Source: a virus (taxonomy: Duplodnaviria > Caudoviricetes). Taken from it: a stretch of DNA of 64,000 nucleotides. Each line of letters opens with the position of its first letter. The first letter of the stretch is position 1. The translations under genes and the position numbers were made by a program. The notes beneath the pieces were generated by a model that was not told the DNA's origin, ran no database searches, and saw only the letters and a program-made list of their open reading frames with translations. The stretch lies in IMG/VR virus record IMGVR_UViG_3300029286_001711, one strand, 5' to 3'. Of this stretch, positions 507 through 64,000 are shown one piece after another.

Positions 507-650
507 TTTCAATTTATTTTGTTTATGGTTATTTTACTTGCAAGTATATCTGCAAGATTTCTAAATAAATATGTTTGCCAAACGCAAAGTGCAAATAGTC
601 AAGAGAAATAAGTGAAAATTTTTATTTAAAATGGTGGATATTTATTATTA

Positions 651-1124
651 ATGAAAAGAAACATTAAAAATATCTTAAGAGAATTTACTGAAAACCGTAT
701 CAAAACTGAGAATTTTGATAAAAAAGTAGATTATATGCAAAAGAAAGCAAAAGAAAATTCAAACTATCCTGAGGCTACAGAAAAAGTTAGTTACATGAAA
801 GATAAGATAGAAAAAGATGTTAGAGACGCATATATTGATGTAACTGGTGAAGAACCCGTTAATGATGAAATTGTTATTACCGTTGATGATAACATTAAAG
901 ACGGTAAGATTGGATCATTCAAACATCCAGAAAATGGAAAAGACCTTGGAGATATGAAAATACACCCCAAGGCCTTAAAAGATACAGAATACGTTAAAGA
1001 TATTATTAAACACGAATTAATTCATGCAGCTCACGGAGTTGAAGACACCGAAGGTAGAAACCATGGTGGTGTGTTTCAAAAAGTGGCTGACCGTGTTGGT
1101 TTACCTAAAAAATATCGTAATTAA
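651..1124 (+). CDS. SprT-like zinc metalloprotease domain protein
   Basis: HELIH (HExxH) followed by HGGVFQKVADRVG, SprT-like pattern; ATATTTAT at 638-645. Confidence 0.65.
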   Translation: MKRNIKNILREFTENRIKTENFDKKVDYMQKKAKENSNYPEATEKVSYMKDKIEKDVRDAYIDVTGEEPVNDEIVITVDDNIKDGKIGSFKHPENGKDLGDMKIHPKALKDTEYVKDIIKHELIHAAHGVEDTEGRNHGGVFQKVADRVGLPKKYRN

Positions 1125-1372
1125 GATTTAGATACCACCTTAACTGGTTCAGGAACTGTAACAACATCTTCAATGTCACTCTTAGTTGCCCCAACTACTT
1201 CATAATCCAAAACAGAATCCTTTAAATACAAACGTACACGAGCCTCAGCTTCAGTACAAGTCATTGCATCCACAAGATACTTAGTTTTAATTTTTTTTAA
1301 TTTACCATTTTGTTCGTTAATTGTTTCGAACTCAACCTTTACAAGGTAATACTTTGCTACATTATCTTCCAT
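1121..1372 (-). CDS. DUF4494-like protein (Bacteroidota family)
   Basis: YYLVKVEFE...KYLVDAMTCTEAEARV resembles DUF4494. Confidence 0.65.
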   Translation of the reverse strand: MEDNVAKYYLVKVEFETINEQNGKLKKIKTKYLVDAMTCTEAEARVRLYLKDSVLDYEVVGATKSDIEDVVTVPEPVKVVSKS

Positions 1373-1401
1373 AATTTATAATTTTATATAATAATTTTAT
1401 C

Positions 1402-1433
1402 AAAAAAAAAGGGATATGTAAATCATATCCCCT
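1402..1433 (-). terminator. Intrinsic terminator
   Basis: GGGATATG/CATATCCC stem followed by a T9 run on the minus strand. Confidence 0.7.
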
Positions 1434-1456
1434 TATTTAATATTTTTATTTGTATA

Positions 1457-1924
1457 TTACTCTTCGTTATCTAAATCTCTTGGAGTAGGTTTACCGCCTC
1501 TAAGATGACCTAAATGTTTCTTCTCTACATTAATAAGTGACTCTCTTAATTTTTTTAAGGGTTCATCCATAGATGTTAAAAAACTTTCCATTTCTTTTCT
1601 AAAAGTATCGTCTAACATATCTGAATGAACGTTTTCAATACCTTTTAAAGCCTCAACAATTTTATTATAATTTCCTTTTACAATACCTAGATACGCACCA
1701 GCGTGTTGTGCGTACATATTGGGGTCGTCATAACCACCAATTTCATTAATTCTACTTTCTTTTATTATATTATTTTTGTGTTTTTCTATTATAGATTCAA
1801 CACTTTCATAACCTCTTTTATCTACCGATTTAAGTTTATCTAAGAAAGTATTTAAAGACATATCCAATAATTTAGGATTCCAATCTTCTCCGTGGTGTTC
1901 TTTAAGTCTTCGGTTGTTTTTCAT
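1457..1924 (-). CDS. Hypothetical protein, putative virion protein
   Basis: 155 aa ORF; ATATTTAT at 1993-2000; LKE/IKE/INE motifs. Confidence 0.6.
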   Translation of the reverse strand: MKNNRRLKEHHGEDWNPKLLDMSLNTFLDKLKSVDKRGYESVESIIEKHKNNIIKESRINEIGGYDDPNMYAQHAGAYLGIVKGNYNKIVEALKGIENVHSDMLDDTFRKEMESFLTSMDEPLKKLRESLINVEKKHLGHLRGGKPTPRDLDNEE

Positions 1925-2868: not shown

Positions 2869-4809
2869 ATGAAGAATGTGGTTAGAAAAATCTTAAAAGA
2901 GAATGATTTTGATTGGGTCGGTGATATATTAAATTCAGAATATTTCCCTGCAACACCAGATATGTTAACCGTAGGTACAAAAATTATTGTAGACGGACGT
3001 GAATTAGATGATGATGAAATTACCCTGGATGAATGGGAAATGGAACCTGGAACTATAATTTCTATTGAAAAATACAATGATAATGATATTATATTAGTTA
3101 AATTTGATAATTGGATTAGTCCAGAGGGTAACAATATTGTCTTAAACTCCAGCCCAATGTGGAAAAATAAAAGGGAGGAATGTGCCGGAGATAATTGTTG
3201 GTCTTTTGTGAGAGAATATAGAAAATACCCCAATGAAGTTGATATTGACATATACTTACTAAACCCTAATTATAAAGAAAAATTGAAAGAAGAAACTATA
3301 AGAAGAGAATTAAAAATGGAACTACCAGATTCCGTATTAAGAATGAACCGTATTTTTAAAGAAAACGGTCATGAATTATATGTTGTTGGTGGTGCTGTTA
3401 GAGATTTATTAAATAAACAAGAGCCAAAAGATTTTGATTTGGCAACTGATGCTACACCAGAAAAAGTTAAATCCATGTTACGTATGTATCGTACGATAGA
3501 TATGGGGGAACAATTCGCTATTGTTAATGTTGTTACAGAAAATGGTCAATATGAGATTGCCACATTCCGTAAGGATATTGGTAAAGGTAGAAGACCCGAT
3601 TCAGTAGAGTATACTTCAATCGACCAAGATGTATTACGTAGAGATTTAACAATGAATGCTCTTTTCTATGATATAGATAAGGGTGAAGTAGTTGACTTGG
3701 TTGGTGGTATTGGTGACATAGAAAGTAACATAGTTAGGACCGTTGGTTCCGCATCCGAACGCTTTGATGAAGATAAGTTACGTATACTTAGAGCACTTAG
3801 GTTTGCAGCTAGAGTGGGTTCTGAATTAGATAAAGACATTATTGATGCAATAACCAAAGATAAAACACCCATTAGTGGTAATGGTTTACCGTTATCTCAA
3901 GAAAGAATTAGAGATGAATTTTTAAAAGGTATTAAACAGGCACAATCTGTTGGTTATTTTACTCAGATGATTGACAAGTATAATTTATGGGATTGGATAT
4001 TCTCACGTCTAGTAGTTACAACGGAACCAATGATTGAGACTAAAAATCCTTTAATATTAATAGCTACTTTATTGAGAAGTAACGATGTTAGATTAGTTGA
4101 AAAAACTTTAGTTGACAGACTTAAGTATACTTCAGACGAGGGTAAACAGATTAGTTTCTTAATACAGTTTTTAGGTTTAAACTCTAGTAATGCATTTAAA
4201 TTGAGGGAAAAATTTGAAACTAGTAAATTAGATGAAACAACTTTAATTGATTTCGCTAGATTTAACGGTATGAATATGAAATTAGTCGAAGCTTTCATAA
4301 AATATCGTATTACTACATCTGGTGATGCTCTTAAAAGAAGGGGGTTAGTGGGTAAGGAAATTGGTAATGAAAAGGAGAGATTAGAAAAAGAGATTTTTGA
4401 TAAACTCATAACCGAATCTAAAAGAAGTGTCTCCTATTCAGCTATAGTATTAACTGAAGAATCTAGAAGTAGACTACTTGAGTACGTTAAGACACCTGGT
4501 AATGATTTATTTGCAACTTGGGAAACTTTAGCTCACCATATGACTATTAATATGGGACCATTAAAAGATGAATACCGACCATTATTAGGTCAGTCATTTG
4601 ATTTATTGATTACTCACATCGGTAGAACGGATAAAGTTTTAGCTGTTAAAGTAGATACCGAATTTAGAACCAAAAATTTAAACCCGCATATTACTGTGGC
4701 GGTAAATAAAGGTGAGGGTGGTAAACCAGCAATGGCAAATCAAATAGACCAATGGACCCCTGTATACCCTTTCGAAGTGGAAGGTAAACTAGAAGAAATA
4801 TATTTCTAA
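2869..4809 (+). CDS. cca: tRNA nucleotidyltransferase (CCA-adding/PolyA_pol family) with N-terminal extra module and C-terminal 2H phosphoesterase
   Basis: VGGAVRD, DFD, TFRKD, RRDLTMNAL, EDKLRILRALRF, SQERIRDE; C-terminal HMTI and HITV = two Hx(T/S) motifs. Confidence 0.88.
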   Translation: MKNVVRKILKENDFDWVGDILNSEYFPATPDMLTVGTKIIVDGRELDDDEITLDEWEMEPGTIISIEKYNDNDIILVKFDNWISPEGNNIVLNSSPMWKNKREECAGDNCWSFVREYRKYPNEVDIDIYLLNPNYKEKLKEETIRRELKMELPDSVLRMNRIFKENGHELYVVGGAVRDLLNKQEPKDFDLATDATPEKVKSMLRMYRTIDMGEQFAIVNVVTENGQYEIATFRKDIGKGRRPDSVEYTSIDQDVLRRDLTMNALFYDIDKGEVVDLVGGIGDIESNIVRTVGSASERFDEDKLRILRALRFAARVGSELDKDIIDAITKDKTPISGNGLPLSQERIRDEFLKGIKQAQSVGYFTQMIDKYNLWDWIFSRLVVTTEPMIETKNPLILIATLLRSNDVRLVEKTLVDRLKYTSDEGKQISFLIQFLGLNSSNAFKLREKFETSKLDETTLIDFARFNGMNMKLVEAFIKYRITTSGDALKRRGLVGKEIGNEKERLEKEIFDKLITESKRSVSYSAIVLTEESRSRLLEYVKTPGNDLFATWETLAHHMTINMGPLKDEYRPLLGQSFDLLITHIGRTDKVLAVKVDTEFRTKNLNPHITVAVNKGEGGKPAMANQIDQWTPVYPFEVEGKLEEIYF

Positions 4810-5278: not shown

Positions 5279-6433
5279 CTATTGTTTTATTTGCTCCATT
5301 GTTATTCCAACCTTGTCAAATACAGTTTCAATCATCACTTTTGATACACAATAAGGGTCACAGTTAGCCGCTGGTCTTCTATCTTCAAAATAACCCCTCT
5401 CGTTGGTATAAGTAGCAACAGGTATACGAATACTCGAACCCCTATCACTATTACCAAAACTAAATTCTTCCATACTTGAAGTTTCGTGTCTACCTGTTAA
5501 ACGTTTTTCATTTTCAACACCATATACATCGATGTGTTCTTTGTGACGTTCTTTTAGTTTTTCACAAGCTTCAAGAATCTTTTTTAATCCACCTTTATCA
5601 CGCATTTCTTTTGTTGAAAAATTAACGTGACAACCACTACCGTTCCAATTACCTTCAACTGGTTTTGGACTGTAAGAAATACCGAACCCATGTTTTTCAA
5701 CAACTCTTTCAAGTATGTATCGTGAAAGCCATAACTGATCCGAACCGTTAAGTGCTGTAACAGGACCTATTTGGTACTCCCATTGAGCAATTAAAACTTC
5801 AGCATTAATACCACCAATCATTAAACCGATTTCAGCACATTTATGTAAATGTTCCTCAACTAATTCTCGTCCGATAACATTTAAACCACCCACACCACAA
5901 TAGTAGTCACCCTGTGGTCTTGGTTTACCATCTGGTCCTGGATTAAACCCTAACGGGATTCCACCACCATATTTAAAATGATTTGTTTTATCTGGAGCGT
6001 GTGTAAGTACATATTCTTGCTCCCATCCGAACCACGGAACTTCTTTTAAGTTCGCATCGTATTCTTTTAATTTGAGTTCATTAAGAAGGTCTCTTAATTT
6101 AGCTCTTGTATTTGATTTATGTGGGGTTTTACCATCTGGGTTGAATACCTCACAATAAACTAATTTATGTTGATTCCCTCTAAAAGGATCGTCTACAACA
6201 TAGACGGGTTTTAGTACACAATCTGTACCCTTAAAACCATACTTTTCTTCGTCTCCAGCTTGTTTAGTTGAACTGCCATCAAAACTCCATAACGGATAAG
6301 ATTCAGGATACCCTTGTTTAGGTTGCCCATCTGTTTCTAGGATATCAGTATTATCCACCACTTTAGTTTTAGACCTAATATTTTGTGGGATATTACCATC
6401 AAGCCAAATGTACTCTAAAAATACTTTACTCAT
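5279..6433 (-). CDS. glnII: Glutamine synthetase type II
   Basis: EYIWLDG, RSKTK, WSFDGSST, FGWEQEY, INAEV, QWEYQIGP, WNGSGCH, RLTGRHET, RGSSIRIP, EDRRPAANCDPY. Confidence 0.95.
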   Translation of the reverse strand: MSKVFLEYIWLDGNIPQNIRSKTKVVDNTDILETDGQPKQGYPESYPLWSFDGSSTKQAGDEEKYGFKGTDCVLKPVYVVDDPFRGNQHKLVYCEVFNPDGKTPHKSNTRAKLRDLLNELKLKEYDANLKEVPWFGWEQEYVLTHAPDKTNHFKYGGGIPLGFNPGPDGKPRPQGDYYCGVGGLNVIGRELVEEHLHKCAEIGLMIGGINAEVLIAQWEYQIGPVTALNGSDQLWLSRYILERVVEKHGFGISYSPKPVEGNWNGSGCHVNFSTKEMRDKGGLKKILEACEKLKERHKEHIDVYGVENEKRLTGRHETSSMEEFSFGNSDRGSSIRIPVATYTNERGYFEDRRPAANCDPYCVSKVMIETVFDKVGITMEQIKQ

Positions 6434-7470: not shown

Positions 7471-8292
7471 TTAATTTGTTAAACTATTTTTTAAGTTATA
7501 TACCTTTGTAATATTTTCTTTAAACGTATCTTCACTATACACTATGTTATAAACAACATCTTTAGCTTCCAATAATTTTGATTTAATATCTAAACTACCG
7601 CCATATTCTTTAAGTGCGTTATTAATTAAAACAATGGATTCTTTTACCATGGTTTTTAAAAAAGCCTCTTTTTCTTTATCATCTGTAGACATAATAGTTT
7701 TAATAACTTTTTTCTCCTCTTCTGATAGTGTTGAATATTTTTCGTTGTACTTATCTACAGCACTGTTTAAAAATTTGTTAGCGTCTACTGTTGGTTTTTT
7801 AGTACTTTCCAAAATTTCTTTAGGTGTGGTTAACCATTTTTTAACTACCTCAAAAGATTCATGAAGTGTGTTAAGTGTCTCAACCGATTTCTCTAATGTA
7901 ATTAGGTTGTTTATTGCCTCGTGAATGTTTTTAGGTTTATTTAATAACATAGTACTAGTTGATTGAAACATTTCACCTGGTACTAAATAACTTTTATAAA
8001 TAACATTTAATTTATCACCTAATTTAATATTTTCTTTAATAATATCTTTTTTATTAAAATTATCGAAAAGAGAAATGTTTTCTTTCAAATATTCAACAGC
8101 ACTAACCTCAGAAGGTAAATACCCGTTCTCAATATTTTTATAAACAACAAATTGTGCTTTAAGAATAGGGTTTTCAACTAAATTTTTTATAAAATTTTTG
8201 TAAATTTTTTTATCCTTACTATTTTTAGATTCCGTTATATAGGAATTCGCTAAAAATTTAGCGTATATATCTTTAATTGTTCCGAAATTCAT
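7471..8292 (-). CDS. Hypothetical protein adjacent to portal (likely head assembly)
   Basis: 273 aa; ATATTTAT at 8307-8314; position next to portal. Confidence 0.6.
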   Translation of the reverse strand: MNFGTIKDIYAKFLANSYITESKNSKDKKIYKNFIKNLVENPILKAQFVVYKNIENGYLPSEVSAVEYLKENISLFDNFNKKDIIKENIKLGDKLNVIYKSYLVPGEMFQSTSTMLLNKPKNIHEAINNLITLEKSVETLNTLHESFEVVKKWLTTPKEILESTKKPTVDANKFLNSAVDKYNEKYSTLSEEEKKVIKTIMSTDDKEKEAFLKTMVKESIVLINNALKEYGGSLDIKSKLLEAKDVVYNIVYSEDTFKENITKVYNLKNSLTN

Positions 8293-8331
8293 AATTCTTT
8301 TTTTATATAAATATTATAATTTTATAGTAAG

Positions 8332-10266
8332 TTAAAATTCTTCTTCATCTTCTTTATCTTCATCACCGATTAGGTTTTTTATACCTTCAGTCATCATCAT
8401 AATATCTTCGTTTTTACGTCTACCTTCTAATAAAAGTTTATCAATTATGTTCTTATCCTGATTACGGAAACCCTCTCCGAATCCACCTGTTTCAGGTGTT
8501 CCAGCCTCAGGACCACCAACCTCTTCTCCGCCTAGACCAGCATCTTCTCCACCTAAACCAGCATCTTCTCCACCTAAACCAGCATCTTCATCTCCACCAA
8601 AATCGAGACCACCGCCTCCACCTCCGCCGAAACCTCCACCACCTAAATCCATTCCACCTTCATCTCCACCACCTTCTTCGGTACCAGCTGTTGCTTGTTC
8701 ACCACCACCAATTTCACCGTAAAGACTATCAACTCTATTAAAGAATCCAGTCTTTTTAATTATAGACGCGGTATTCTCTAATTCAGCTGATGCGGCCCTT
8801 TCCATTCTTTGTTGTTCAAGGTCAGTTTTAATATCCTCATCAGTCCAGTTAAAGATGTTTTTCTTCGCCCAAGTATGTGATGATGGAGCAATACCACCAT
8901 CAACTTGTGAAACTAAATCTTTATAAAGTAAAACTTTTTCTTTCCATTGTTCTACTTTCAACATCTCACCTTGAGTAGATGGGTTGGTTAGATTTAAAGT
9001 GAAATTATTTAAATCATCTGTAAAACCTAAAATATATAAATGAATAATAGCTAATTTATTCAATTCCTGAATCATTGATTGTTGAATACGGTTAATAGTT
9101 CTAGCAAAACGTATATCTAACAAGGCTAAATTTTTTCCGTCACCAGCTGCCTCATCAAAACCTAAGAATGGTTTTGGTACTCTAAGAGCTGTTAATAACT
9201 TTTTCTGAATATATTCAATGTCAGCAATTTGGTCCAAATTACTGGCACCCGCCAACGTTTCAATTGGGTTTGGTGCGTTTGGATCTCTAACGGGAACAAA
9301 ATAATCTTGGTCGACTGCTAACGTATTATAACGTAAATCAACCTGACCAGTTTTTTGGTCTACAACCTGATTTCTTTTGAATTTATTAGCTACTTTTTGT
9401 ACGTAAGCATCAACGTCTTTATCATCAATGTTACCCACATATATTTTAAATACACGTCTTTCTGGTGCTCTTACAACACGATAAACTAACATTGCATCTT
9501 CAGAAAGTAATAATTGTTTCCAAATTCTTCTTGCTTTCTCTAAAACGGAAGTACCGTACGGTAATCTTCTATCATCACCCAATAATCTAAAATGGGCAAC
9601 TTCCCATGGGTTAAAATCTAAACTTTTATCACGCCAGTGGAAGGTTACTTGTTTTTTCTTAGTTGTAGCTCCATCACTTTCTTTAGTTTGTTGTGGAAAC
9701 ATACCTTCTTCCTTACGTTCCATCTCAATATTAGTTAACTGAGATGAACCGATAATACCTCTAGAGTGGTCAATTTTTAAGAATACAAAATTATCACCAT
9801 ACTTACACGTATTACGAGTCCACATTGGTAAGTTAGTTTGAATATCTATAATATTATAAAATAAATCTTCTAATACGTTTTTAACTCTTTTTGAATTTGA
9901 TTGAATAGTTAAAACCTTCCCTTGTTCACTTGGTGTACAAGATTCTTCGGACATAATATCTAAAGCGGCAGCTATTTCTGGTGTAAATTCCATTGCCTCA
10001 TAATCCATATATGACGCAATTCTTGATGTTTCGTAATAGACGGCTTTTTGGTACAATTCACTATCAACCCTAGCCCATTGAGCTTCAAGATAGTTTTGTT
10101 GTTGTCCTTCTAATTTTTCCTTTTCATACTGTTGCTTAGAGTTAGTGGTGATTACATCACCGTCACCTAAAGTGTATTTAGGGGTTGTTCTTTGAACTGG
10201 TTTGTTTTGTCCAAACAAGTAGAAGAGTTTTTGATATACTGTTAAATCTTTATTATTATCTGCCAT
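8332..10266 (-). CDS. Portal protein (T4 gp20-like)
   Basis: PEIAAALDI, YGDNF, HFRL, EDAMLVYRVVRAPERRVFKIYVGN, QDYFVPVR, IETLAG, KLLTALRVPK. Confidence 0.93.
   Translation of the reverse strand: MADNNKDLTVYQKLFYLFGQNKPVQRTTPKYTLGDGDVITTNSKQQYEKEKLEGQQQNYLEAQWARVDSELYQKAVYYETSRIASYMDYEAMEFTPEIAAALDIMSEESCTPSEQGKVLTIQSNSKRVKNVLEDLFYNIIDIQTNLPMWTRNTCKYGDNFVFLKIDHSRGIIGSSQLTNIEMERKEEGMFPQQTKESDGATTKKKQVTFHWRDKSLDFNPWEVAHFRLLGDDRRLPYGTSVLEKARRIWKQLLLSEDAMLVYRVVRAPERRVFKIYVGNIDDKDVDAYVQKVANKFKRNQVVDQKTGQVDLRYNTLAVDQDYFVPVRDPNAPNPIETLAGASNLDQIADIEYIQKKLLTALRVPKPFLGFDEAAGDGKNLALLDIRFARTINRIQQSMIQELNKLAIIHLYILGFTDDLNNFTLNLTNPSTQGEMLKVEQWKEKVLLYKDLVSQVDGGIAPSSHTWAKKNIFNWTDEDIKTDLEQQRMERAASAELENTASIIKKTGFFNRVDSLYGEIGGGEQATAGTEEGGGDEGGMDLGGGGFGGGGGGGLDFGGDEDAGLGGEDAGLGGEDAGLGGEEVGGPEAGTPETGGFGEGFRNQDKNIIDKLLLEGRRKNEDIMMMTEGIKNLIGDEDKEDEEEF
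8537..8590 (-). repeat. 21-nt tandem repeat encoding LGG(E/D)EDAG-like units in the portal tail
   Basis: ACCAGCATCTTCTCCACCTAA repeated about 3 times. Confidence 0.85.
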
Positions 10267-10344
10267 TAATTTTTTTTCAAAACTTTGTTATTTACACATA
10301 AATATTCAAATTTAAAGGTAAGCTAACAAACTTAAATGTGAATG

Positions 10345-10584: not shown

Positions 10585-12408
10585 TTATTTTCTTACTATT
10601 TTTTTATTTTTTTCTTTATCCTTAAACCCACTAAGTCCCATAAAAACCCAGTTATGTTCTGATGTTGCTGTTTGAACGTGTCTAGCAAGTTCACCACTGT
10701 TTAAAAGACCGTTATATTCGGTTGTATTTAACTGACCTATAGATTCACTAGTTGTAGTTGATACAACCCAAGAGTCTAACATTGCTTTAGCTTGACCCTT
10801 ACTTTTTTCTAAATCCTTAAAAGAAGTTTGACTAACGAAACAACACATCGCAATGCCCATTAAAAGGTCATCATGATACCCTTTCATATGGTCTGGTCTT
10901 CCGTTTTTAAATACGAAAGTATCCATCTCAGCAAGTGCTCTAATAGACCTAACTTTAAATGAATCTAAACGAACAGCCTCCTCAAGTTTGGTTATGATTG
11001 TATTTCTATTTTTTTGGAAGTTAAGACCTGGTAATTTACCATCTCTCATATGTTTTTCCAATGTCTTATTGTTTGTTACTGAATCAATACCTATTACCAC
11101 ATCGTAGTACATTTTTTTTGATGAGTAACCAAGTTCAATCATTTTTAACACCGATGAAACACCGTAACCACCAGTGATATCGACAACAACAAAGGCTTCA
11201 TACCTGTTACCATACTCTGTGGCAATCTCACCTAAAATATCTGGTGCAATTTTACCGTGATATTCAGCAACCTGATGTCCTGTTGTAAAATCCATAATAC
11301 AGATAGTACCAAAGTCATCTGCAGAACCCGACGCAGCATCAACAGCCATAATATATTCATGACCGAGAATTGGATCTTCCCAAATCCACATACCATTATC
11401 CAACCATTCAGTTCTGATAGGGTCTTTAACGTTATTTTTTCTGTGGTAATCAATATATTTGTGGTTGATAACGTTGTCACCTGAACCGTTAAATGCACAC
11501 AATAGTTCTTGTGCAATCATTCTGGCGTTGTTATTTAACTGACCACACATCATCTCAAACCAAGGTGATGTTGGTGTCCAACCTTCATTTTCTAATCGTT
11601 CAAATTGAGTGAAATCCATCTCAACCATCTCATCAATAACCTCATCAGCCTCATTCTTTTTCTGCCATTTCATACCTTTGTTATAACGAGGATCTTGAAA
11701 CCATCTCATTTCAACAATATTAAATGGGTTATTGGTTTTTTCTTTTGTTGTGGCCGCCATATACGTTTTATAGTATAAAGGATCCATACCATTTGGTGTA
11801 CTAATTAAAATCGCCCTACCACCTGTAGAAAGGGCTGGTTGAGCTGCGGAGTAAACTTCTTCACCTCCTTCAATGTAAGCTGCCTCATCCATCACAAGTA
11901 GTGTTGGTGTGTAACCACGTAAGGCATCCATTGAAGTAGCTACGGCTTTTACCTCAGAACCGTTCTTTAATCTATAATGTTTTTGTGAATTTTTTTCTAC
12001 ATCAAACCAAGAGGTATCGTTACCAGTTGCCCACACATTCATCCAGTCGGGAAGTTGAGCGGTAAAATCTTTAACTTTTTTAAGGAATTCAATAGCTGTT
12101 TCTTGTTTGTTTGCCAAAATAAGTACCCTTTGTGGGTTATTTGGGTCAGCTAAAGCCGTCATAACGGCGATATAAGCCGCAGTTGTGGTTGATACACCCG
12201 CCTGACGTGGTTTCATCACAATATTAAAACGATTGTCTTTATACGCCTTAATTAATTCTTTCTGTTTAGGGAATAATTTGAAATTAACGAAACTCTTTTG
12301 TGTTTGGTCAAATGTTGTAAGGTAACCCTCAATTGCGTGAGCAGGATCTTTAATACATTTACCTATCTCTAGAAGTTTCTGACCCTTATTTTGTGGAATT
12401 GTAGACAT
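10585..12408 (-). CDS. terL: Terminase large subunit
   Basis: KPRQAGVST (Walker A region), LVMDEAA (Walker B), ISTPNG, nuclease AVDAASG...DD, HDDLLM. Confidence 0.93.
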   Translation of the reverse strand: MSTIPQNKGQKLLEIGKCIKDPAHAIEGYLTTFDQTQKSFVNFKLFPKQKELIKAYKDNRFNIVMKPRQAGVSTTTAAYIAVMTALADPNNPQRVLILANKQETAIEFLKKVKDFTAQLPDWMNVWATGNDTSWFDVEKNSQKHYRLKNGSEVKAVATSMDALRGYTPTLLVMDEAAYIEGGEEVYSAAQPALSTGGRAILISTPNGMDPLYYKTYMAATTKEKTNNPFNIVEMRWFQDPRYNKGMKWQKKNEADEVIDEMVEMDFTQFERLENEGWTPTSPWFEMMCGQLNNNARMIAQELLCAFNGSGDNVINHKYIDYHRKNNVKDPIRTEWLDNGMWIWEDPILGHEYIMAVDAASGSADDFGTICIMDFTTGHQVAEYHGKIAPDILGEIATEYGNRYEAFVVVDITGGYGVSSVLKMIELGYSSKKMYYDVVIGIDSVTNNKTLEKHMRDGKLPGLNFQKNRNTIITKLEEAVRLDSFKVRSIRALAEMDTFVFKNGRPDHMKGYHDDLLMGIAMCCFVSQTSFKDLEKSKGQAKAMLDSWVVSTTTSESIGQLNTTEYNGLLNSGELARHVQTATSEHNWVFMGLSGFKDKEKNKKIVRK

Positions 12409-12467
12409 AAAAATGGTGTTCCTTTATTATATAAATATTAAGAAACATCATTTAATTCTATCAGCAA

Positions 12468-12500
12468 TAAAAAACCCATCTGGAGCGAACAGATGGGTTT
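12468..12500 (-). terminator. Intrinsic terminator
   Basis: AAACCCATCTG/CAGATGGGTTT 11-bp stem with a U-tract on the minus strand. Confidence 0.8.
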
Positions 12501-18348: not shown

Positions 18349-18369
18349 ATAAATATTCATGATATTTAT
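18349..18369. promoter_or_regulatory. Divergent ATATTTAT pair
   Basis: ATAAATAT at 18349-18356 and ATATTTAT at 18362-18369 between divergent genes. Confidence 0.6.
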
Positions 18370-25586: not shown

Positions 25587-25608
25587 TAAAATTCTTTTAT
25601 AATAAATA

Positions 25609-29128: not shown

Positions 29129-29160
29129 ATTGGTGATTAATGTTTTTTATAAATATGTGA

Positions 29161-38048: not shown

Positions 38049-38099
38049 ATTATATAAATATAATACTGTTTATATAAAATAAATCCTTATATTTGTATT

Positions 38100-43063: not shown

Positions 43064-43094
43064 TTTGCCCATCAAATATTTATCTATATATTTG
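43064..43094 (+). promoter_or_regulatory. Bacteroidota sigma70-type promoter (TTTG-N19-TATATTTG)
   Basis: TTTG 43064-43067; TATATTTG 43087-43094. Confidence 0.75.
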
Positions 43095-47783: not shown

Positions 47784-47806
47784 TGTATATAAATATATCG
47801 AAATCT

Positions 47807-48148: not shown

Positions 48149-48204
48149 ATCAATAATAAATATATAATATTGATATAGTAAATAATAATACCTAAGATTA
48201 ATAT

Positions 48205-48603: not shown

Positions 48604-48947
48604 GATATAAAGAAGGGGAGGAAGTTTCATTTAAAGTTTTATCACCAATTGATGAATCCGTCAATGGGAAAGTGGTGGTAGCAATTCCAGATGGAATACT
48701 TAAATGGGAAGAATATGGTGAACCGTATTATTTAGTTGAATACCGTGAAGGTTGGGATTACCATTTAATGGTAATGGATGAATTAATAGGTTTAATAGGG
48801 GAAGATAATATATCTAAACTAGAAGATGAAAAAAAATATTGGTTTGTTCGTGAAAAAAACATTGTTGGTAAGTGGGATGGAAAACGGACAATACCAGAGT
48901 TAATGAATTTTAGGTTATTAAAATATAACTTTAAGAAAAATTCTTAA
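48600..48947 (+). CDS. Hypothetical protein (SH3/KOW-like)
   Basis: MRYKEGEEVSFK...GKVV; basic C-terminal tail. Confidence 0.55.
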   Translation: MRYKEGEEVSFKVLSPIDESVNGKVVVAIPDGILKWEEYGEPYYLVEYREGWDYHLMVMDELIGLIGEDNISKLEDEKKYWFVREKNIVGKWDGKRTIPELMNFRLLKYNFKKNS

Positions 48948-49894: not shown

Positions 49895-49928
49895 TAACAA
49901 TAAATATTCAGGAAAACGGAAAGGGGTG

Positions 49929-52723: not shown

Positions 52724-52750
52724 TAACAATAAATATCAGAAATTCAGGAA

Positions 52751-53943: not shown

Positions 53944-54156
53944 TTAATGTGTACCGTTAGTTAATGAAACCCCATGACGAAATCCCATAATGAAATCCCT
54001 AATTTCTTCCTCATTCATTTTGGGGAGTATGGAACCTAAAATAAATCCGACCTCATTACCGACATCCGATAAATCACCATTCTGATAGGGAACCTTGGTT
54101 AACCCAGCACCTAACTTATTTAAGACCTCTTGAAACTCTATCTCACGTTCTTGCAT
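53944..54156 (-). CDS. Hypothetical protein
   Basis: 70 aa; TATCTTTG at 54256-54263. Confidence 0.55.
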   Translation of the reverse strand: MQEREIEFQEVLNKLGAGLTKVPYQNGDLSDVGNEVGFILGSILPKMNEEEIRDFIMGFRHGVSLTNGTH

Positions 54157-54410
54157 ATAGAAAAGACTATACTTAGTTTTAAATTCCTTATAGGTGGAAT
54201 TGGATAACTCGAATGTTTTTTAGTCCCTTACATTCTGAACCATAAACCTTATATACAAAGATACGAAAATTATTTTATTGAGACCACTTTTTTGGGAAAA
54301 ATTTTCCCGAAATTTTTTTTGGGTTTTTGACCCTATATAGAGTAGAACGCTATTTTCAGAAATTTTTACCCCAAAATTTTTTTACACTTTTGATCTGAAA
54401 ACGTATCCGA

Positions 54411-54492
54411 ACCCCCCTATTGGGGGCTCCCCACGTCCCGGCCAGGGGGAGGGGGGATATGCGCAGGGGGGAGGGGGCCATGGTATGGGGAC
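54411..54492. other. Non-coding G-tract island (G-quadruplex potential)
   Basis: G5, G6, G6, G5, G4 runs at 54445, 54451, 54466, 54473, 54487 in an AT-rich genome. Confidence 0.75.
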
Positions 54493-54524
54493 CCTGCCAG
54501 CCTGACATCTTGTCTGTATATTTC

Positions 54525-54716
54525 TTACGTTCGCCTCAATAGTCTACTATTAATTGGTTTGGCCGATGTCCCAGTGAACTTCGGCTTATTGTACTGCTTC
54601 ATCCTCTCCATAAACTCTTTCCTCTTCCTCTCTCTGTTGTCCATCACCTTCACGATGACAGCTGATACGATTAGGATTGTACCTACTGAGATTCCTACTA
54701 TAACATTCGCTTCCAT
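54525..54716 (-). CDS. Small single-TM protein
   Basis: VIVGISVGTILIVSAVIV then basic tail; promoter TTTG-N20-TATCTTTG at 54733-54764. Confidence 0.55.
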   Translation of the reverse strand: MEANVIVGISVGTILIVSAVIVKVMDNRERKRKEFMERMKQYNKPKFTGTSAKPINSRLLRRT

Positions 54717-54805
54717 ATTATTATCTTTAATACAAAGATAAACAATTCATTTGATATAGACAAATCTATTTGCTATGTTGTTATGTCTATCTTAGTCGTT
54801 GGAGA

Positions 54806-55075
54806 TTACATAGTCGTTGAGAATGTTAATGGTCTTAAGTGTTTGATTGGTTCTATACTTTCTTCCCGTATAGATAGTACACCTCTCTCTAGCCAACCCT
54901 CTATGTCATCATCATAAACCCAGATGGTCTTACCTGATGTCTTACCCTTAAGGAAGTACTTGTGTCTAATGAATGGTACATCACCTAGTCTATAGACTCT
55001 ATCAGCCACTTTGTCTATGACGGTCATGTAGCTATCATGTCTCATGTTATTAAACCTATCTCCTATTTGATACAT
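54806..55075 (-). CDS. Small hypothetical protein (basic C-tag)
   Basis: MYQIGDRF...IEPIKHLRPLTF. Confidence 0.6.
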   Translation of the reverse strand: MYQIGDRFNNMRHDSYMTVIDKVADRVYRLGDVPFIRHKYFLKGKTSGKTIWVYDDDIEGWLERGVLSIREESIEPIKHLRPLTFSTTM

Positions 55076-55448
55076 TCTTCTTCCTGCTCTTCTTAATCTC
55101 GTTAACTAGTATGGTGATTGATGTGACAGCCAATCCTATACCAAAACAAAACCCCATAACATCTTTTATAATCATACGATAAAGATAACCATTTTATTTG
55201 GTAGTGTCAAAAGTATTATGTACATTTGTATTGTTGATGGCCATCAGCGTGAGAGTACCAGAGTCGATTGGAGACAGCGCCAAGTGTGCCTTATATTTTC
55301 CTATTGCGGAAAATATTATTTGTTTTTTAATTATATTATCCGTATCTTTGTATTATATGGGAATGACATTTAGAGTCGATGATAAACAATCGTTTTAATG
55401 TTTTTTACACTTTGTTATACACAGTATTAATTTATAAAATATAAACAA

Positions 55449-55616
55449 ATGGAATCAGTAAAAGAATTTATCACAGAAACAAAAACAGAAATAAAAAACG
55501 GTGTTAAATACACCACACATTTTGTTAATAGACCTATTAGACAAGGCGACACACAAGGTGGTTCTGTTGGTACGTGTATTAACGGAATAAACAAAACAAC
55601 GGAAATCATAAATTAA
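55449..55616 (+). CDS. Small hypothetical protein (55 aa, below the ORF-track cut-off)
   Basis: Manual translation MESVKEFITETKTEIKNG...; preferred over the antisense ORF 55427-55609. Confidence 0.45.
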   Translation: MESVKEFITETKTEIKNGVKYTTHFVNRPIRQGDTQGGSVGTCINGINKTTEIIN

Positions 55617-55856
55617 TATTGTGTATAACTACTAGATTAACGCAATAGACATAACAAATAAAAAAAATAACAAGGTGTATCAATGCCTACATATAAAAAA
55701 GTGAAGAAGAAGTATGTCAGCGTATTTAGGTGTTGTAGTTTCATTGACTTGGCTGGTTTTAATACTTTCCTACCAACTAGAAAACGTACACTTGTTATAA
55801 AAAATTAACCCATAAAAATAGTTGATAGTATAAAATAAAATTCTTATATTTGTAGT

Positions 55857-55955
55857 ATGGAAATATTAAGTTTAGAAACAGGAGTATTAGTAATGGTGGG
55901 CGTTTGTATCACCCTATTAGTATGGCTATTACGCAGAGTCGCTAAGATGAGTTAA
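55857..55955 (+). CDS. 32-aa hydrophobic peptide
   Basis: MEILSLETGVLVMVGVCITLLVWLLRRVAKMS; TATATTTG at 55845-55852. Confidence 0.5.
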   Translation: MEILSLETGVLVMVGVCITLLVWLLRRVAKMS

Positions 55956-56253
55956 ACATGGGTTACGGTACACCCTATTTTCCCACTCTCTGTCCCTTCT
56001 CTCCAGGGAATTCCCCATTCGCTGCCGTAAAATTTGAGTCATAACTCGCAAGAGGGTCAGTTCCCTTTACGGTTTCCTTACATAATCAACCATTTCCTAT
56101 TGTCTTTTCTATACGTGGCAATCTCTTCATATACACAATCCACCACTTTTCCCCATTATTTACCACCGAGTATTCCAAGATCGAGAAATTTATACTAATT
56201 GGCAGCGGGCGTTGCCTATTGTATGGATCTACATCTTCCACACATTTACTGAA

Positions 56254-56475
56254 TTAAGATCGTAATAGAGTAGGGTTTATGGTACGTAGTAATGTCGGTT
56301 CAAAACATTCTTCCATATTTTCCTTCCATATCCAGAGTATTCTGTTCCCCCTTTCCAATATATCAACACACTCTCGTTCCCAGGCAATATATCTATATAC
56401 CTCATAGACTTTTCCTATACGGAAATTCTTTGTATAATCAATCTTAGGAATCTTCTTACAAATTACTCTTTCCAT
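56254..56475 (-). CDS. Small hypothetical protein
   Basis: IGKVYEV segment, SH3-like. Confidence 0.55.
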   Translation of the reverse strand: MERVICKKIPKIDYTKNFRIGKVYEVYRYIAWERECVDILERGNRILWIWKENMEECFEPTLLRTINPTLLRS

Positions 56476-60668: not shown

Positions 60669-61400
60669 TTATTCAGGGTTCATTAAATTAATTATTTGCC
60701 ATTTGCCGTCATAATCTTCGACCAAACAGGTGCTATTCTCACAAAAGTCTCCTGAATTCATATAATCTTGTTCTAATTTTGGATAATGTATGTGACCACA
60801 AACAGCAACATCATAACCTTTTTGTTTGGTTAAATTCTTAGCATTATCTTCAAAATCTGATACAAAGTTAATTACTCCTTTGACAGATTGTTTAATTGTG
60901 TTAGCTAACGAATGATAAGGTAAATTAAATTTATTTCTTATATAGTTGTATACTGTGTTTAGTTTAATAATAAAATCATATGACCAACCGCCAAGAACTG
61001 CTAACCATCTCATTTTCATAATTACAAAATCTAAAACATCTCCATGAAAACAATAGTAAGTTCTACCATCTACTCCTGTGTGTACATACTTTCTAACAAT
61101 TTGAATATTGTTCATAGTAAATGGAATAAATGGTTTTAAAAAATCATCGTGATTTCCCCTAATGTATATTACTTTTGTTCCTTTCTCACTTCTCTTCATA
61201 AACTTTCTAAATATTTTGGAGCAATCGTTGTTCCACCTTCCTTTTGATTTTAATGCCCAACCATCAATGATATCGCCATTTAAAATTAATATTTCGGATT
61301 TGTTTTCTTTTAAAAACTGTAATATCTTTTCTGTTTGTGATTGTCTTGCACCAAGATGTAAATCACTCATTATAATGGTTCGCCATTTTTTCATTGCCAA
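60669..61400 (-). CDS. UDP-2,3-diacylglucosamine diphosphatase-like metallophosphoesterase
   Basis: SDLHLG, NGDIID, RGNHD, HGD, GHIH, NSGD. Confidence 0.85.
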   Translation of the reverse strand: MAMKKWRTIIMSDLHLGARQSQTEKILQFLKENKSEILILNGDIIDGWALKSKGRWNNDCSKIFRKFMKRSEKGTKVIYIRGNHDDFLKPFIPFTMNNIQIVRKYVHTGVDGRTYYCFHGDVLDFVIMKMRWLAVLGGWSYDFIIKLNTVYNYIRNKFNLPYHSLANTIKQSVKGVINFVSDFEDNAKNLTKQKGYDVAVCGHIHYPKLEQDYMNSGDFCENSTCLVEDYDGKWQIINLMNPE

Positions 61401-62095
61401 TATGAATTATGTTTTTGAAAAAAGTTCTTATTATTTCTGTTAATAAATGATTGAAACATTAATTTTATCATATACACTACACCCTTGTTTTTAAACCTTC
61501 TTGGGCTTGTGAATATGTGTTTGTCGATAATTTTAAATTTATTGGGTTTTACTTTTTTGGATAATAAATAATCTTCTGCGACTTTTATACTTTCATCAAA
61601 ACCACCAAGTTTTTTAAATATCTTTGTTTTAAATAACATAAAACCACCAAGACAAAATGGGGTTATTGGTTTAATTATTTTTTGTATAACATCGAATGAT
61701 TTATATGTGTAATTATATTCACCTGTTGTTGTTCTAACTTTTGTGGTTAATAAATGAAGTTTTTCTTTTTTCATTATATTAATTGTTTCTGTTAGTAAAT
61801 TAAAATCTAAAATAAACATGTCTGCATCCAAAAATAAAACATAAGGAGTTGTTACATATTTAATACCATTATTTCTTGCAACTGAAGGTAGGCCACCTTG
61901 AATAATTTGTAAAATAAATTTATCTTTTTCTCTTAATTCAAGTTCAACGGTTGTGTTATCCGTTGAAGAATCTGATACAATAACATTAACCCCCTCTATG
62001 TTATTTTGTTGGTTTAATAAAGATAATGTTGTGTCTATTATCTTAGATTCATTTTTACAAGGTATAACGATTGTTAGTAATTTTGAAAGTTCCAT
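61391..62095 (-). CDS. Glycosyltransferase family 2
   Basis: IVIPCKNE, VSDSSTD, ARNNG, LFLDAD, GGFDE, AEDY; ATATTTAT at 62100-62107. Confidence 0.9.
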   Translation of the reverse strand: MELSKLLTIVIPCKNESKIIDTTLSLLNQQNNIEGVNVIVSDSSTDNTTVELELREKDKFILQIIQGGLPSVARNNGIKYVTTPYVLFLDADMFILDFNLLTETINIMKKEKLHLLTTKVRTTTGEYNYTYKSFDVIQKIIKPITPFCLGGFMLFKTKIFKKLGGFDESIKVAEDYLLSKKVKPNKFKIIDKHIFTSPRRFKNKGVVYMIKLMFQSFINRNNKNFFQKHNSYWQ

Positions 62096-62134
62096 AATGA
62101 TAAATATCTTTTAATATTTTCCTAATCAAATCTC

Positions 62135-62545
62135 TCATTTCATTTTACACCAATACTTACTTGGGATTAACTCTTCCGTAAACCATTTGAAGGAAACATC
62201 TTCGTAACCATTCTTATCAGCATCTTCACTTTCAGGGTCTTCATAATCATAACACCTTGAGGATTCTATTGAATAGTCTTTAGCGTTGTAGGTTGTATTT
62301 TCAGGATCACAAGGTTTATACTTAATAATAAGCCCACCTTTTTCATCGGGGATAATATCAGCAATTGTCAGAACGTATCTAGCATCTGTTGGTTGATAAT
62401 CATCAGGAGATGGGTTGGTTTTCTGGGGATTATTATTATCAACAACATAGAAAACATCACCAATGTTAATGTTTAAACCTGATACTGCCTCTCTAGCCCA
62501 TTCCAGGTCGTCGATTTCTTCTTTTATGATTTTTCTAATATCCAT
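62135..62545 (-). CDS. Single-module member of the EDDxEWA family
   Basis: MDIRKIIKEEIDDLEWARE + NIGDVFYV. Confidence 0.7.
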   Translation of the reverse strand: MDIRKIIKEEIDDLEWAREAVSGLNINIGDVFYVVDNNNPQKTNPSPDDYQPTDARYVLTIADIIPDEKGGLIIKYKPCDPENTTYNAKDYSIESSRCYDYEDPESEDADKNGYEDVSFKWFTEELIPSKYWCKMK

Positions 62546-62546
62546 T

Positions 62547-63932
62547 TTATTCTATAACAATAATATCTACCATATCTTCATTAATCCAATAAGGTAGGTC
62601 TAAAACATTATCAGTTAAACACTCAACAAGTTGAGCACTCAGAACATCCTCATCGATATCCATACCAAAATTAAAACCAGCTTCACAATCAGAACCACTT
62701 CTCACCATCTGTTTAATTTTACCTATTCTAAATACTTGTTTAAACCACCATTCAACATTACCATTAAATGAACACAAATCTAAGGATTCTTTAAAATAAT
62801 CACTACCATTTGATTTTGGGATAAGTTTAAATTTTAGTTTATCAAGATTTTTAGGGTTACTTTGTTTAAAGACATCCCAATAGTTTTCAACCCCAGAAAC
62901 CAAATCTCTGGCCCATTCCAATTCATCTTCTTGTTCTCTAATTTTACTAACTCTCTTCCTAGCTGGTCTATACCCGTCAGCATTAATTATAAAATGTTTA
63001 CCATCTGATTTTCTCACCAGATGTGAAATTCTTTCATCGTATTCATTAGTCTCCGTGTTATTGATTAGGTAACAAATATCACCGTTTTCTGGTGTCCCTA
63101 ATGATGGTACTTGTTGATGTAAAAATAATGTCCCAACATCACCTTTAATGCCCTCACCCATTTCATATCTACGTGATAAATTATGATAATCTTCACTATC
63201 CCACCAATGTTTTCCATATTTCTGATTAAACTCTTCCATACCTGGAATTTTTACATTTAACATAAATTCTGTATAGGTCGGATAATAAGCCGCACTTCTG
63301 GTAACCACAACTTCTGGAAATTTAGTTAGTTCCTTAGCCCATTCAAAATCATCTTCAGATTCATTTAGATTACTCTCCACAACTTTCCAAGCACCACTAT
63401 TCAAAATCTTTAAAAGTTTGCCTATATCAAAAGGTGTACCTTTTGATGGGTATGAAGCCGGTAAGTTTGCTGGTAAAATATATACAACCCTATCTGTAAC
63501 TTTTGTTATAACAGCTAATATTGGTGAACCACCTGGTATTTTTGATGGTATTGAAAATTTCTGACCAACTTTAAGAAGATTGGTACTATCTAAGTCTTTA
63601 ACCCAAGATAAATCATCTTCAGATTCATATAACTGGCCAAAGAAATCGGTATTTTGAATATCAGGTGGAATTAGAGTGAACCAATCTTCATAGTTTCGAC
63701 CAACCACATCTTTTTGTACAGTAAATCTAGCAGTATGTTGACCACGATTTCTAACCCCTCCAATACTAATGATATCTTCTCCACGATTACCACCCCTAGA
63801 TTCAAAGTTGGTAACTTCAACATAATCACCCACCTTTGGCCCAACACCTTCCGTATGGCAATACAAAAAATCTCCGACCTTGGGTACCGGCTTTAATGAT
63901 TCTTTAATTATTTTACGGATAGAGTTTCTCAC
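62547..63932 (-). CDS. Four-module polyprotein-like protein
   Basis: Start reassigned to GTG 63932 after ATATTTAT 63937-63944; IIKES leader; linkers LYESEDDLSWVK, LNESEDDFEWAK, IREQEDELEWAR. Confidence 0.75.
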   Translation of the reverse strand: MRNSIRKIIKESLKPVPKVGDFLYCHTEGVGPKVGDYVEVTNFESRGGNRGEDIISIGGVRNRGQHTARFTVQKDVVGRNYEDWFTLIPPDIQNTDFFGQLYESEDDLSWVKDLDSTNLLKVGQKFSIPSKIPGGSPILAVITKVTDRVVYILPANLPASYPSKGTPFDIGKLLKILNSGAWKVVESNLNESEDDFEWAKELTKFPEVVVTRSAAYYPTYTEFMLNVKIPGMEEFNQKYGKHWWDSEDYHNLSRRYEMGEGIKGDVGTLFLHQQVPSLGTPENGDICYLINNTETNEYDERISHLVRKSDGKHFIINADGYRPARKRVSKIREQEDELEWARDLVSGVENYWDVFKQSNPKNLDKLKFKLIPKSNGSDYFKESLDLCSFNGNVEWWFKQVFRIGKIKQMVRSGSDCEAGFNFGMDIDEDVLSAQLVECLTDNVLDLPYWINEDMVDIIVIE

Positions 63933-64000
63933 GTTAATAAATATCCACATAAAAAAAGAAGAACACATCTCCTTTATTTTTTCATCCCTAAATATTCTTT

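Follow-up and report, generated by a model that had tools for sequence, protein, structure and literature searches.

We analysed a 64 kb stretch of viral DNA (IMG/VR record IMGVR_UViG_3300029286_001711; the whole stretch is referred to as the window) and found that the octamer ATATTTAT, which we call the late box, is very probably a late promoter of the phage from which it comes. The window has a GC content of 32%, is densely coding with its genes predominantly on the minus strand, and most likely derives from an uncultured freshwater T4-like myophage that has a member of the Bacteroidota as its host. An earlier note on the same DNA had proposed a phage-specific late promoter and a capsid-targeting leader shared by many of the proteins expressed from it. 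The promoter reading is strongly supported by the position and strand of the box, the lack of a -35 element, its avoidance within genes, its conservation in relatives and the genes that it would serve. A combined explanation, comprising a late promoter class, a gp55-like factor and cleaved protein leaders, is in our judgement the best account and probably correct.

Distribution of the late box

Every copy of ATATTTAT that the earlier note had listed upstream of a gene is an exact match on the coding strand it had named, and five copies lie beyond that list [2835(-), 21123(-), 28931(+), 32085(-) and 43076(+)]. The total of 31 in the window compares with 15.7 ± 3.9 in dinucleotide shuffles, none of which (0 of 100) reached 31, and this whole-window count understates the enrichment. 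When the enrichment test suggested in the note was run on intergenic DNA, i.e. the 4,241 of 64,000 nucleotides (nt) outside gene calls, 24 copies were found to be wholly intergenic, compared with 2.7 ± 1.7 expected under a first-order Markov model of AT-rich intergenic DNA and a maximum of 11 in 1,000 runs. In addition, ATATTTAT is the most frequent 8-mer within 40 nt upstream of starts, where it is found at 24 of the 95 called genes. The majority of the copies (26 of 31) lie 2-68 nt upstream of a called start on the same strand, and 28 of 31 point at a start once a re-read GTG (site 63937) and a scaffold-like gene cut by the window edge (site 565) are added. The sense form is present upstream of 25 genes; the antisense form is found at nine, each of them in a divergent region in which the box belongs to the gene on the other side. 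The divergent palindromes described previously are also there: ATAAATATCGATATTTAT occupies 2846-2863, the boxes at 18349-18369 form a pair with a spacer, and those at 34734-34745 overlap.

Coding cores are poor in the box on both strands, with three copies seen compared with 13.6 expected from codon-order shuffles, none of which (0 of 300) was as low. Such avoidance on both strands fits a signal that is read on duplex DNA and is harmful if it arises by chance, and argues against a purely RNA-level element. The orphan boxes found within genes are at 21123(-), 28931(+) and 32085(-); two are antisense and one is sense, 211 nt before gene 31370-31873. These three may be chance survivors or internal/antisense promoters.

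Conservation of the box in relatives and in phage immuto

Comparison was made with 80 IMG/VR relatives, the N-terminal 120 amino acids of whose portal proteins are 45-99% identical by tblastn, and with Flavobacterium phage vB_FspM_immuto (immuto), the nearest cultured phage by protein (large terminase 31.6% identical). No upstream 8-mer is commoner than ATATTTAT among the 80 relatives either (228 of 862 genes), and CTATTTAT is a common variant. Upstream of the portal gene, [AC]TATTTAT is kept in 58 of 79 relatives at about 25-35 nt from the start, in flanks that have wholly diverged, and several further relatives keep GTATTTAT; upstream of the protease gene the core is almost universal. In immuto, nTATTTAT is found upstream of terminase, portal, head and tail genes, and 13 of its 18 sense copies fall within the 7.9% of sequence that lies just upstream of annotated starts (p = 3e-11). 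The conservation before the portal and protease genes together with the copies in immuto therefore identify TATTTAT as the functional core, which is shared by at least two lineages that are very distant from each other and have, or probably have, Bacteroidota as hosts. A search of the literature on this box, on late promoters of T4-like phages of Bacteroidota and on phage immuto found no earlier description.

Anatomy of the box and the predicted transcription start

No -35 partner was detected: the 28 gene-associated sites are informative only in the 8-mer itself, and nothing is conserved from -40 to -1. The sixth nucleotide downstream of the box is an A at 23 of the 28 sites and, as this could be the A of nearby ATGs, the analysis was limited to sites far from a start codon, giving a set of 195 non-redundant sites from the window and relatives with the start codon at least 14 nt away. 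In this set, A accounts for 73, 82 and 88% of bases at 5, 6 and 7 nt after the core respectively, and G for 2% directly after the box. We envisage the box as a single recognition element at about -13 to -6, with the core TATTTAT usually preceded by A or C, and transcription as most likely starting at an A 5-7 nt downstream of it.

The spacing between box and start codon is bimodal, with one peak at 4-5 nt (10 window sites; 13 sites have a spacing of 2-8 nt) and a second at 13-16 nt. If initiation takes place approximately 6 nt after the box, the first peak would yield leaderless mRNAs, so that roughly one third of the late mRNAs of the window would start at or next to the start codon; the second would give mRNA leaders of about 8-10 nt for most of the remainder. 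The two long mRNA leaders (58 and 68 nt; sites 565 and 1993) open with a stem-loop 6-9 nt after the box, and strong terminators at 12472-12500 and 29158-29187 directly precede the boxes at 12431 and 29149. In the mRNA leader of the scaffold-like gene (507-564, -), the stem varies among relatives by paired substitutions, as judged by eye, namely CTTGCA/TGCAAG, CTTGTAG/CTGCAAG, TTCGGC/GCCGAA and TCCGC/GCGGA (loci L001:14088-14147, L003:19346-19405, L004:10788-10847 and L011:18641-18700). RNAalifold gave no consensus for the scaffold 5' leaders, MAFFT having misaligned the hairpins. In the long late mRNA leaders (507-564 and 1925-1992, both on the minus strand), the stem-loop may act as a stabilizer of the 5' end or in translational control.

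That the box lies 2-8 nt from the start codon at 13 sites might suggest that it acts instead in RNA, as a translational operator, a ribosome-loading element or a nuclease site before the start codon, and T4 does have RNA-level regulators of AU-rich start regions, such as RegA. We regard this as very improbable, since the distance to the start varies between 2 and 68 nt and peaks twice, the avoidance within genes is equal on the antisense and sense strands, some boxes directly follow terminators and others face away from each other in divergent regions, and the A-rich start-like signal keeps its fixed distance from the box even where the start codon is distant.

Genes served by the late box

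Genes for virion and packaging proteins stand behind late boxes, i.e. those for the protease, the portal, the terminase, the scaffold-like protein and a structural/tail-fibre-like protein. All of these are on the minus strand. The acidic scaffold-like gene (1-506, truncated by the window edge) has its box at 565-572, at a distance of 58 nt from the ATG (506), and a stem-loop starts 8 nt past the box. The prohead protease gene (2006-2818) is preceded by tandem boxes at 2835 and 2846 (2835-2853), at distances of 16 and 27 nt. Its product belongs to Pfam Peptidase_S77, the T4 gp21 family (PF03420, E = 6e-29, 101 bits; phrog_207, E = 7e-42), and is the presumed cutter of the protein leaders described below. 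In the T4-type head/packaging module, the box at 10298-10305 is 31 nt before the gp20-type portal gene (8332-10266) and has the same place in most relatives, and that at 12431-12438 is 22 nt before the large terminase gene (10585-12408), with the terminator at 12472-12500 just upstream of it. The box at 31343-31350 precedes a 700-residue structural/tail-fibre-like gene (29208-31310) by 32 nt.

Further boxes on the minus strand lead into genes that are mostly of less obvious function. That at 1993-2000 lies 68 nt before gene 1457-1924, with a stem-loop from 6 nt after the box; that at 8307-8314 is 14 nt before the head-module gene 7471-8292; and those at 17558-17565, 32992-32999 and 48156-48163 are 16, 13 and 7 nt before genes 17245-17541, 31890-32978 and 47807-48148 respectively. 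The box at 29149-29156, directly after the terminator at 29158-29187, is 20 nt before gene 28550-29128. Genes bearing a protein leader follow the boxes at 25602-25609 (15 nt before gene 24126-25586), 37533-37540 (19 nt before gene 37115-37513) and 47789-47796, the last of which is 5 nt before gene 46464-47783 and heads a leader-bearing run of genes 46464, 45595 and 43700. At 36803-36810, the box is 4 nt before gene 35542-36798, a leaderless arrangement. Similar short distances are seen for the boxes at 38054-38061 (5 nt before gene 37800-38048), 49900-49907 (5 nt before gene 48944-49894), 52729-52736 (5 nt before gene 50849-52723) and 62100-62107 (4 nt before the family-2 glycosyltransferase gene 61391-62095), and for that at 63937-63944, which is 4 nt before the GTG start (63932) of gene 62547-63932, giving VRNSIRKIIKE.

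On the plus strand, the box at 638-645 lies 5 nt before the ATG of an SprT-like gene (651-1124), again a leaderless arrangement, and that at 2856-2863, which forms the palindrome with the 2846 box, is 5 nt before a gene resembling that for the CCA-adding enzyme (2869-4809). The box at 43076-43083 is 30 nt before gene 43114-43404, and a host-type TATATTTG box (43087) lies between them. In the divergent pair at 18349-18369, the copy at 18349(-) faces a nucleotidyltransferase-like gene (17535-18341) and that at 18362(+) a leader-bearing gene (18378-18710); in the overlapping divergent pair at 34734-34745, 34734(-) faces gene 33007-34710 and 34738(+) faces gene 34748-35545. PHROGs and Pfam gave no match for the late genes 7471, 28550, 29208, 31890, 33007, 34748, 35542, 48944, 50849 and 62547. 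The late regulon would in this way be made up of head, packaging and fibre-like genes together with many genes of unknown or enzymatic function.

Relation to host and T4 promoter sequences

The genes for the uvsE-like endonuclease, the ligase and the RadA-like protein, which the earlier note had set apart from the regulon, do carry another box, TAnnTTTG, and not the late box. This box is itself enriched in intergenic DNA (20 seen compared with 7.5 ± 2.8 expected), and also fronts a block of small open reading frames (ORFs) at 54-60 kb, where it often has the form TAT(A/C)TTTGTA with an ATG 4 nt on; E. coli-type -35/-10 sites showed no enrichment in the window. A Bacteroidota host is likely because TAnnTTTG boxes are enriched, E. 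coli-type promoters are not, and the proteins link the phage to immuto.

TAnnTTTG is the -7 element of the primary-sigma promoter of Bacteroidota, which in F. johnsoniae pairs it with a -33 TTTG; the -7 box reads T-12 A-11 H H T-8 T-7 T-6 G-5, T-7 and G-5 being almost invariant, with transcription starting 4-5 nt after it (PMC6847099). Placed in register, the late box would read A-13 T-12 A-11 T T T-8 A-7 T-6 with no G-5, and would be a close variant of the host box. The two have T-12, A-11, T-8 and T-6 in common, with non-G bases at -10/-9 and a start 4-6 nt after the box, and the early genes of the window use the canonical form. They differ in that the late box has A and not T at -7, has 2% G at -5, adds a conserved A/C at -13, and fronts virion genes rather than those for replication and repair. 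The A-7 and the absent G-5 set the late box apart, so it is not a host-type promoter. By our own comparison, the T4 late promoter TATAAATA stands in a similar relation to the E. coli -10 box, of which it can be viewed as an extended form.

The earlier note had described the motif as roughly the reverse complement of TATAAATA. As a string this holds (ATATTTATA becomes TATAAATAT), but the relation is probably not a meaningful one, because the functional strand is the sense strand, and a variant of the host -7 box in register appears to be the better account of the sequence. One might still suppose that the true signal is the T4 TATAAATA read from the other strand, with transcription directed away from the neighbouring gene, given that the reverse complement of ATATTTATA contains TATAAATA and that an A follows the box at 11 of 28 sites. 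This we find scarcely credible: the full T4 box would exist at only those 11 of 28 sites, the position that matches the invariant last A of T4 is often C or G in relatives, and in long arrays of genes on one strand, promoters of this kind would send antisense transcripts into the gene upstream. Moreover, the A-rich start signal is on the gene side, and the antisense copies are all explained by divergent genes.

The form TAT(A/C)TTTGTA was noted at 25861, 38088, 39452, 40752, 54733, 55845, 56854 and 60027, among other positions, upstream of early-looking genes, and with an ATG often 4 nt after the host-type box these mRNAs would be leaderless too. This is unusual for the phylum, as leaders longer than 10 nt are found in 87% of those transcripts predicted in F. 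johnsoniae that have a probable promoter (PMC6847099). The gene-poor region 54100-56300 has six host-type boxes on both strands (54256, 54733, 54761, 55208, 55221 and 55845) and very short ORFs, and may encode small early proteins or RNAs; there was no Rfam match in 53-57 kb.

Comparison with T4 late transcription and a candidate sigma factor

In T4, late promoters have their first position at -13 and no -35 element, give late transcripts of either polarity, and require gp55, gp33 and gp45; the known consensus sequences of the family are all TATAAATA-like (PMC2988020). The element described here resembles the T4 late promoter (TATAAATA, -13 to -6) in being a single 8-bp box made up of A and T only, without a -35 partner, in having an AT/A-rich stretch up to the start, in lying on both strands, and in its placement upstream of genes for the head, packaging and the tail, frequently with a terminator immediately ahead. 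The phage also has a gp20-type portal, a gp17-type terminase and a gp21-type protease, and its relatives encode a weakly gp55-like protein. The box would then work like a T4 late promoter and serve the same genes, but it departs from the T4 sequence.

The earlier note had suggested a search for a gp55-like sigma factor. No homologue was found in the window, but one relative gave a weak match to the gp55 PHROG (E = 3e-4), and this defines a conserved family of 207-266-residue proteins present in four relatives (G001, G002, G007 and G009) and in immuto as gp118, which is annotated as hypothetical. The family has more than 7,800 clusters in public data from lakes and oceans, some with precomputed Sigma70_r2 hits. 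When examined directly, 15 of 17 members matched phrog_234 (gp55 late sigma; best E = 3e-4) and no other family consistently, and four of four matched Pfam Sigma70_r2 below threshold. From synteny in G001 and G007, the sigma-like gene should lie 11-12 kb before the start of the window. We propose that a diverged gp55-like sigma probably redirects the host core polymerase to the late box.

Several observations weigh against this picture. The sense-strand sequence is ATATTTAT, which is neither TATAAATA nor one of the described variants of the T4 family (PMC2988020), and TATAAATA occurs in the window only as the reverse complement at divergent sites. An hhalign comparison of the sigma candidate with T4 gp55 gave a probability of 4%, although the region-2 stretch was aligned; a profile search of PDB sequences with the candidate gave no match; and Foldseek returned only hits with E ≥ 0.1, the top rows being sigma factors. 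The candidate, which is barely recognizable as a sigma factor when set beside its T4 counterpart, lies outside the window and was seen only in the relatives and immuto. No convincing match to a gp45-type clamp was found in the relatives or immuto with phrog_223 and PF02916, a result that says little, as the phrog_223 control also matched nowhere; nor was a gp33 homologue identified, although none was sought. A further difference from T4 is that many of the predicted starts would give leaderless mRNAs.

An alternative reader of the box would be a true sigma-70-family protein of the phage, recognizing late or middle promoters in the Bacteroidota style with an altered -7 specificity. In its favour, the late box departs from the host -7 box, with which it aligns in register, at just two or three positions, and G001 and G002 each encode a 267-280-residue protein with Sigma70_r2 and Sigma70_r4 above the Pfam cut-offs. 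The box is not accompanied by a -33-type element, and immuto, the genome of which is complete, has the same core box and the gp55-like family but no true match to sigma-70 region 2 or 4. The gp55-like protein is favoured because immuto uses the same box without a true sigma-70 protein, and we consider a true sigma-70 reader unlikely. On this comparison of genomes, the gp55-like protein is likely, though weakly grounded, as the late-box factor. The loci of the relatives that encode the sigma-70 proteins are G002:141488-144649 (L090) and G001:159621-162773 (L091).

N-terminal leaders of late proteins

All of the leader strings quoted in the earlier note are present in the proteins. The motif [ILV][ILV][KR]E occurs 17 times in the window proteome, eight of these within the first 20 residues, compared with 0.95 expected from the internal rate (Poisson p = 7e-6), and over the same N-terminal 20 residues the looser [ILV][ILV][KRNTL]E has 15 occurrences compared with 2.4 expected (p = 5e-8). 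Of 13 carrier genes, 11 are behind a late box or in a same-strand run after one; gene 6857 is in a run after the 8307 box that was judged by strand alone. Gene 57855, in an early block, is an exception and probably a chance one. To judge by protein family across the window and relatives, the motif is present in 12 of 53 late families compared with 12 of 150 others (p = 0.011), a family-level result that rules out inflation of the association by the counting of orthologues.

The leaders fall into two kinds. The first is basic and RKI(I/L)KE-like, and is found on proteins that are otherwise dissimilar, i.e. the SprT-like protein (MKRNIKNILRE, 651-683, +), the CCA-adding-enzyme-like protein (MKNVVRKILKE, 2869-2901, +) and the products of genes 18378-18710 (MRKKIILKE, 18378-18404, +), 62135 (MDIRKIIKE followed by EIDDLEWA, 62519-62545, -) and 62547-63932 [(V)RNSIRKIIKE, 63900-63932, -]. 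The second has a double LLxE form and is found on genes 33007-34710 (MGMLLERIKEVLLE, 34669-34710, -), 46464-47783 (MESQNIKYIILEQLLTE, 47733-47783, -) and 43700 (MEVSLKILFESLLNE, 45551-45595, -), which are paralogous over about 250 residues and owe their common leader to common descent. Apart from this trio, the carriers share no other similarity. Other leaders are MSTLLLEKNILLE (25548-25586, -; gene 24126-25586), MSRKIRLNKNSVTNIIRE (37460-37513, -; gene 37115-37513) and MKKIILTE (46441-46464, -). The description of the leader as shared by many non-structural enzymes was overstated: only the SprT-like and CCA-adding-enzyme-like proteins can clearly be recognized as enzymes, a weak DHH match being the one addition, and three of the carriers are paralogues.

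We propose that a subset of the late proteins carries a leader of 8-18 residues, often basic, helical, and ending in hydrophobic-hydrophobic-x-Glu, that the leaders may be propeptides removed by the encoded S77 (gp21-type) prohead protease, and that, by analogy with the T4 capsid targeting sequence, they may load their proteins into the prohead. T4 gp21 cleaves after L/I-x-E and itself has LIE-9, and in IPIII a stretch as short as residues 1-10 is enough to direct a protein to the capsid (PMC9026906). In the present family, the protease keeps GILVE near its own N-terminus, the scaffold-like protein has an invariant V-K-E-S and other sites of similar type, and SprT-like orthologues retain the hydrophobic-hydrophobic-x-E motif down to 38% identity. 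An AlphaFold2 (AF2) model of the SprT-like protein has a low-confidence N-terminal helix (residues 1-20) with a dip below 50 at residues 11-13, just past the putative cut. Similar leaders, such as MKKSELVKLIKEE and MKKSQLRQIIKEA, are found on immuto proteins. A co-fold of the scaffold-like protein with the SprT-like leader protein scored 0.00.

The likeness to the capsid targeting sequences of T4 (IPI-III and Alt, from which gp21 removes the targeting peptide at L/I-x-E; PMC9026906) lies in N-terminal peptides of 8-18 residues that end in I/L-x-E, in the otherwise unrelated nature of the carriers, in the presence of a gp21-family (S77) protease and in the conserved sites of the same type on a scaffold-like core protein. 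The differences are that the tags here do not resemble those of T4 in sequence and are often basic (RKI[IL]KE), that more proteins are tagged (about 11 in 64 kb) and that these include recognizable enzymes, that the unit is also internal in long proteins, and that the system is known here from sequence alone. In phages phiKZ, 201phi2-1 and SPN3US, gp21-like proteases cleave head and ejection proteins at S/A-x-E (PMC9026906). Those phages are similarly large, with many candidate protease substrates cut after Glu and possibly a sizeable cargo, but they belong to another lineage, P3 is here hydrophobic and not S/A, and neither an inner body nor a virion RNA polymerase is indicated.

Among the points that speak against capsid addressing, the loose leader motif arises by chance in approximately 10% of internal 30-residue stretches, three of the leader proteins (33007, 46464 and 43700) are the paralogues described above, and many late genes, including those predicted to have leaderless mRNAs, carry no protein leader. 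Long proteins have the L-x-E plus (S/E)EDDFEWAK unit in their interior as well, and it may therefore be a domain boundary or linker and not an address. The A-rich 5' codons of mRNAs without Shine-Dalgarno sites could also favour N-termini rich in K, N, I and E.

These points lead to a competing explanation, in which the leaders are not capsid addresses but a by-product of A-rich unstructured 5' coding ends, or else an N-terminal helix or linker with another role (partner binding, oligomerization or a domain boundary), cleaved or not. K, N, I, R and E have A-rich codons, many late mRNAs are here predicted to be leaderless, and initiation in Bacteroidota, which lack Shine-Dalgarno sites, is tuned through mRNA structure (PMC6847099); the recurrence of the unit within long proteins and the paralogy of the trio also fit. 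Composition does not, however, yield the hydrophobic-hydrophobic-x-Glu ending, which is 6-8-fold over-represented in the first 20 residues, and six late genes with predicted leaderless mRNAs have no such protein leader. The motif equals the site of T4 gp21 in a phage that encodes an S77 protease, and it is kept in orthologues while the adjoining residues change. We hold the by-product explanation to be a real but somewhat doubtful possibility. The reading of the leaders as cleaved propeptides that load the capsid, drawn by analogy with T4, is plausible and in our estimate stands at about an even chance.

The long late proteins 48944-49894, 50849-52723 and 62547-63932 (all on the minus strand) are internally repetitive, with units that follow the pattern L(Y/K/N)E-(S/Q)E-(D/E)D(F/L)(E/S)W(A/V)(K/R), and the same L-x-E unit is found at the N-terminus of genes 62135 and 2869. 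These long proteins look as if small domains had been strung together with protease-type sites between them. The SprT-like protein retains HExxH. In the CCA-adding-enzyme-like protein, the PolyA_pol head domain is at residues 170-290, behind an N-terminal extension of approximately 150 residues, and more L-x-E-S-type sites lie near residues 513-530.

Other genes and the source of the DNA

Other recognizable genes of the window encode a thymidylate synthase, a ClpB-like ATPase, the uvsE-like endonuclease, an ATP-dependent DNA ligase and the RadA-like ATPase; there are no tRNA genes in the window. In the head module, between the portal and protease genes, lies a gene (5279-6433, -) for a 384-residue protein that starts MSKVFLEYIWLDGN, is conserved in eight relatives and has a PHROG of unknown function as its sole match. 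At 94-411 (+) there is an ORF with a high S, P and K content; it reads the scaffold-like gene in antisense and almost certainly does not represent a gene.

A megablast of 8 kb against cultured phages gave no match at the DNA level. The DNA runs that contain the window sequence come from lake water, and a related portal is encoded in more than 600 IMG/VR contigs. The 70% completeness rating of a 226-kb relative makes genome sizes of about 300 kb likely. No RNA run was listed for a 10-kb query; four estuary metatranscriptome runs, which shared 5-10% of the words of a 2-kb query, gave a few short contigs, mostly 85-95% alike and from relatives; these carry nothing on starts, strand or level and were not used as evidence.

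Implications

Late transcription is a hallmark of the T4 family, the described consensus sequences of which are TATAAATA-like and come from phages of hosts with E. coli-type or cyanobacterial promoters. The present data point to a different late box in a very large group of phages (more than 600 portal-matching contigs and more than 7,800 sigma-like clusters), and this box appears to have been shaped by the unusual promoter grammar of the Bacteroidota. It offers a simple rule for annotating late genes and their true starts in uncultured phages, as for the GTG at 63932, and it predicts widespread leaderless late mRNAs in a phylum whose mRNAs mostly have leaders. Flavobacterium phage immuto provides a cultured system for the ideas on both promoter and leader.

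If the protein leaders are capsid addresses, box and tag together would list the injected protein cargo straight from sequence. More tentatively, and with some doubt on our part, an abundant aquatic clade of T4-like phages may pre-load its capsid with enzymes by means of one tag and one late promoter class. Polyproteins would then release many small domains as part of the cargo, alongside a CCA-adding enzyme/phosphoesterase and an SprT-like metalloprotease, and the box would have co-evolved with the host -7 box and given mostly leaderless mRNAs. Were this so, box and tag would form a code for ‘made late, packed, injected next round’.

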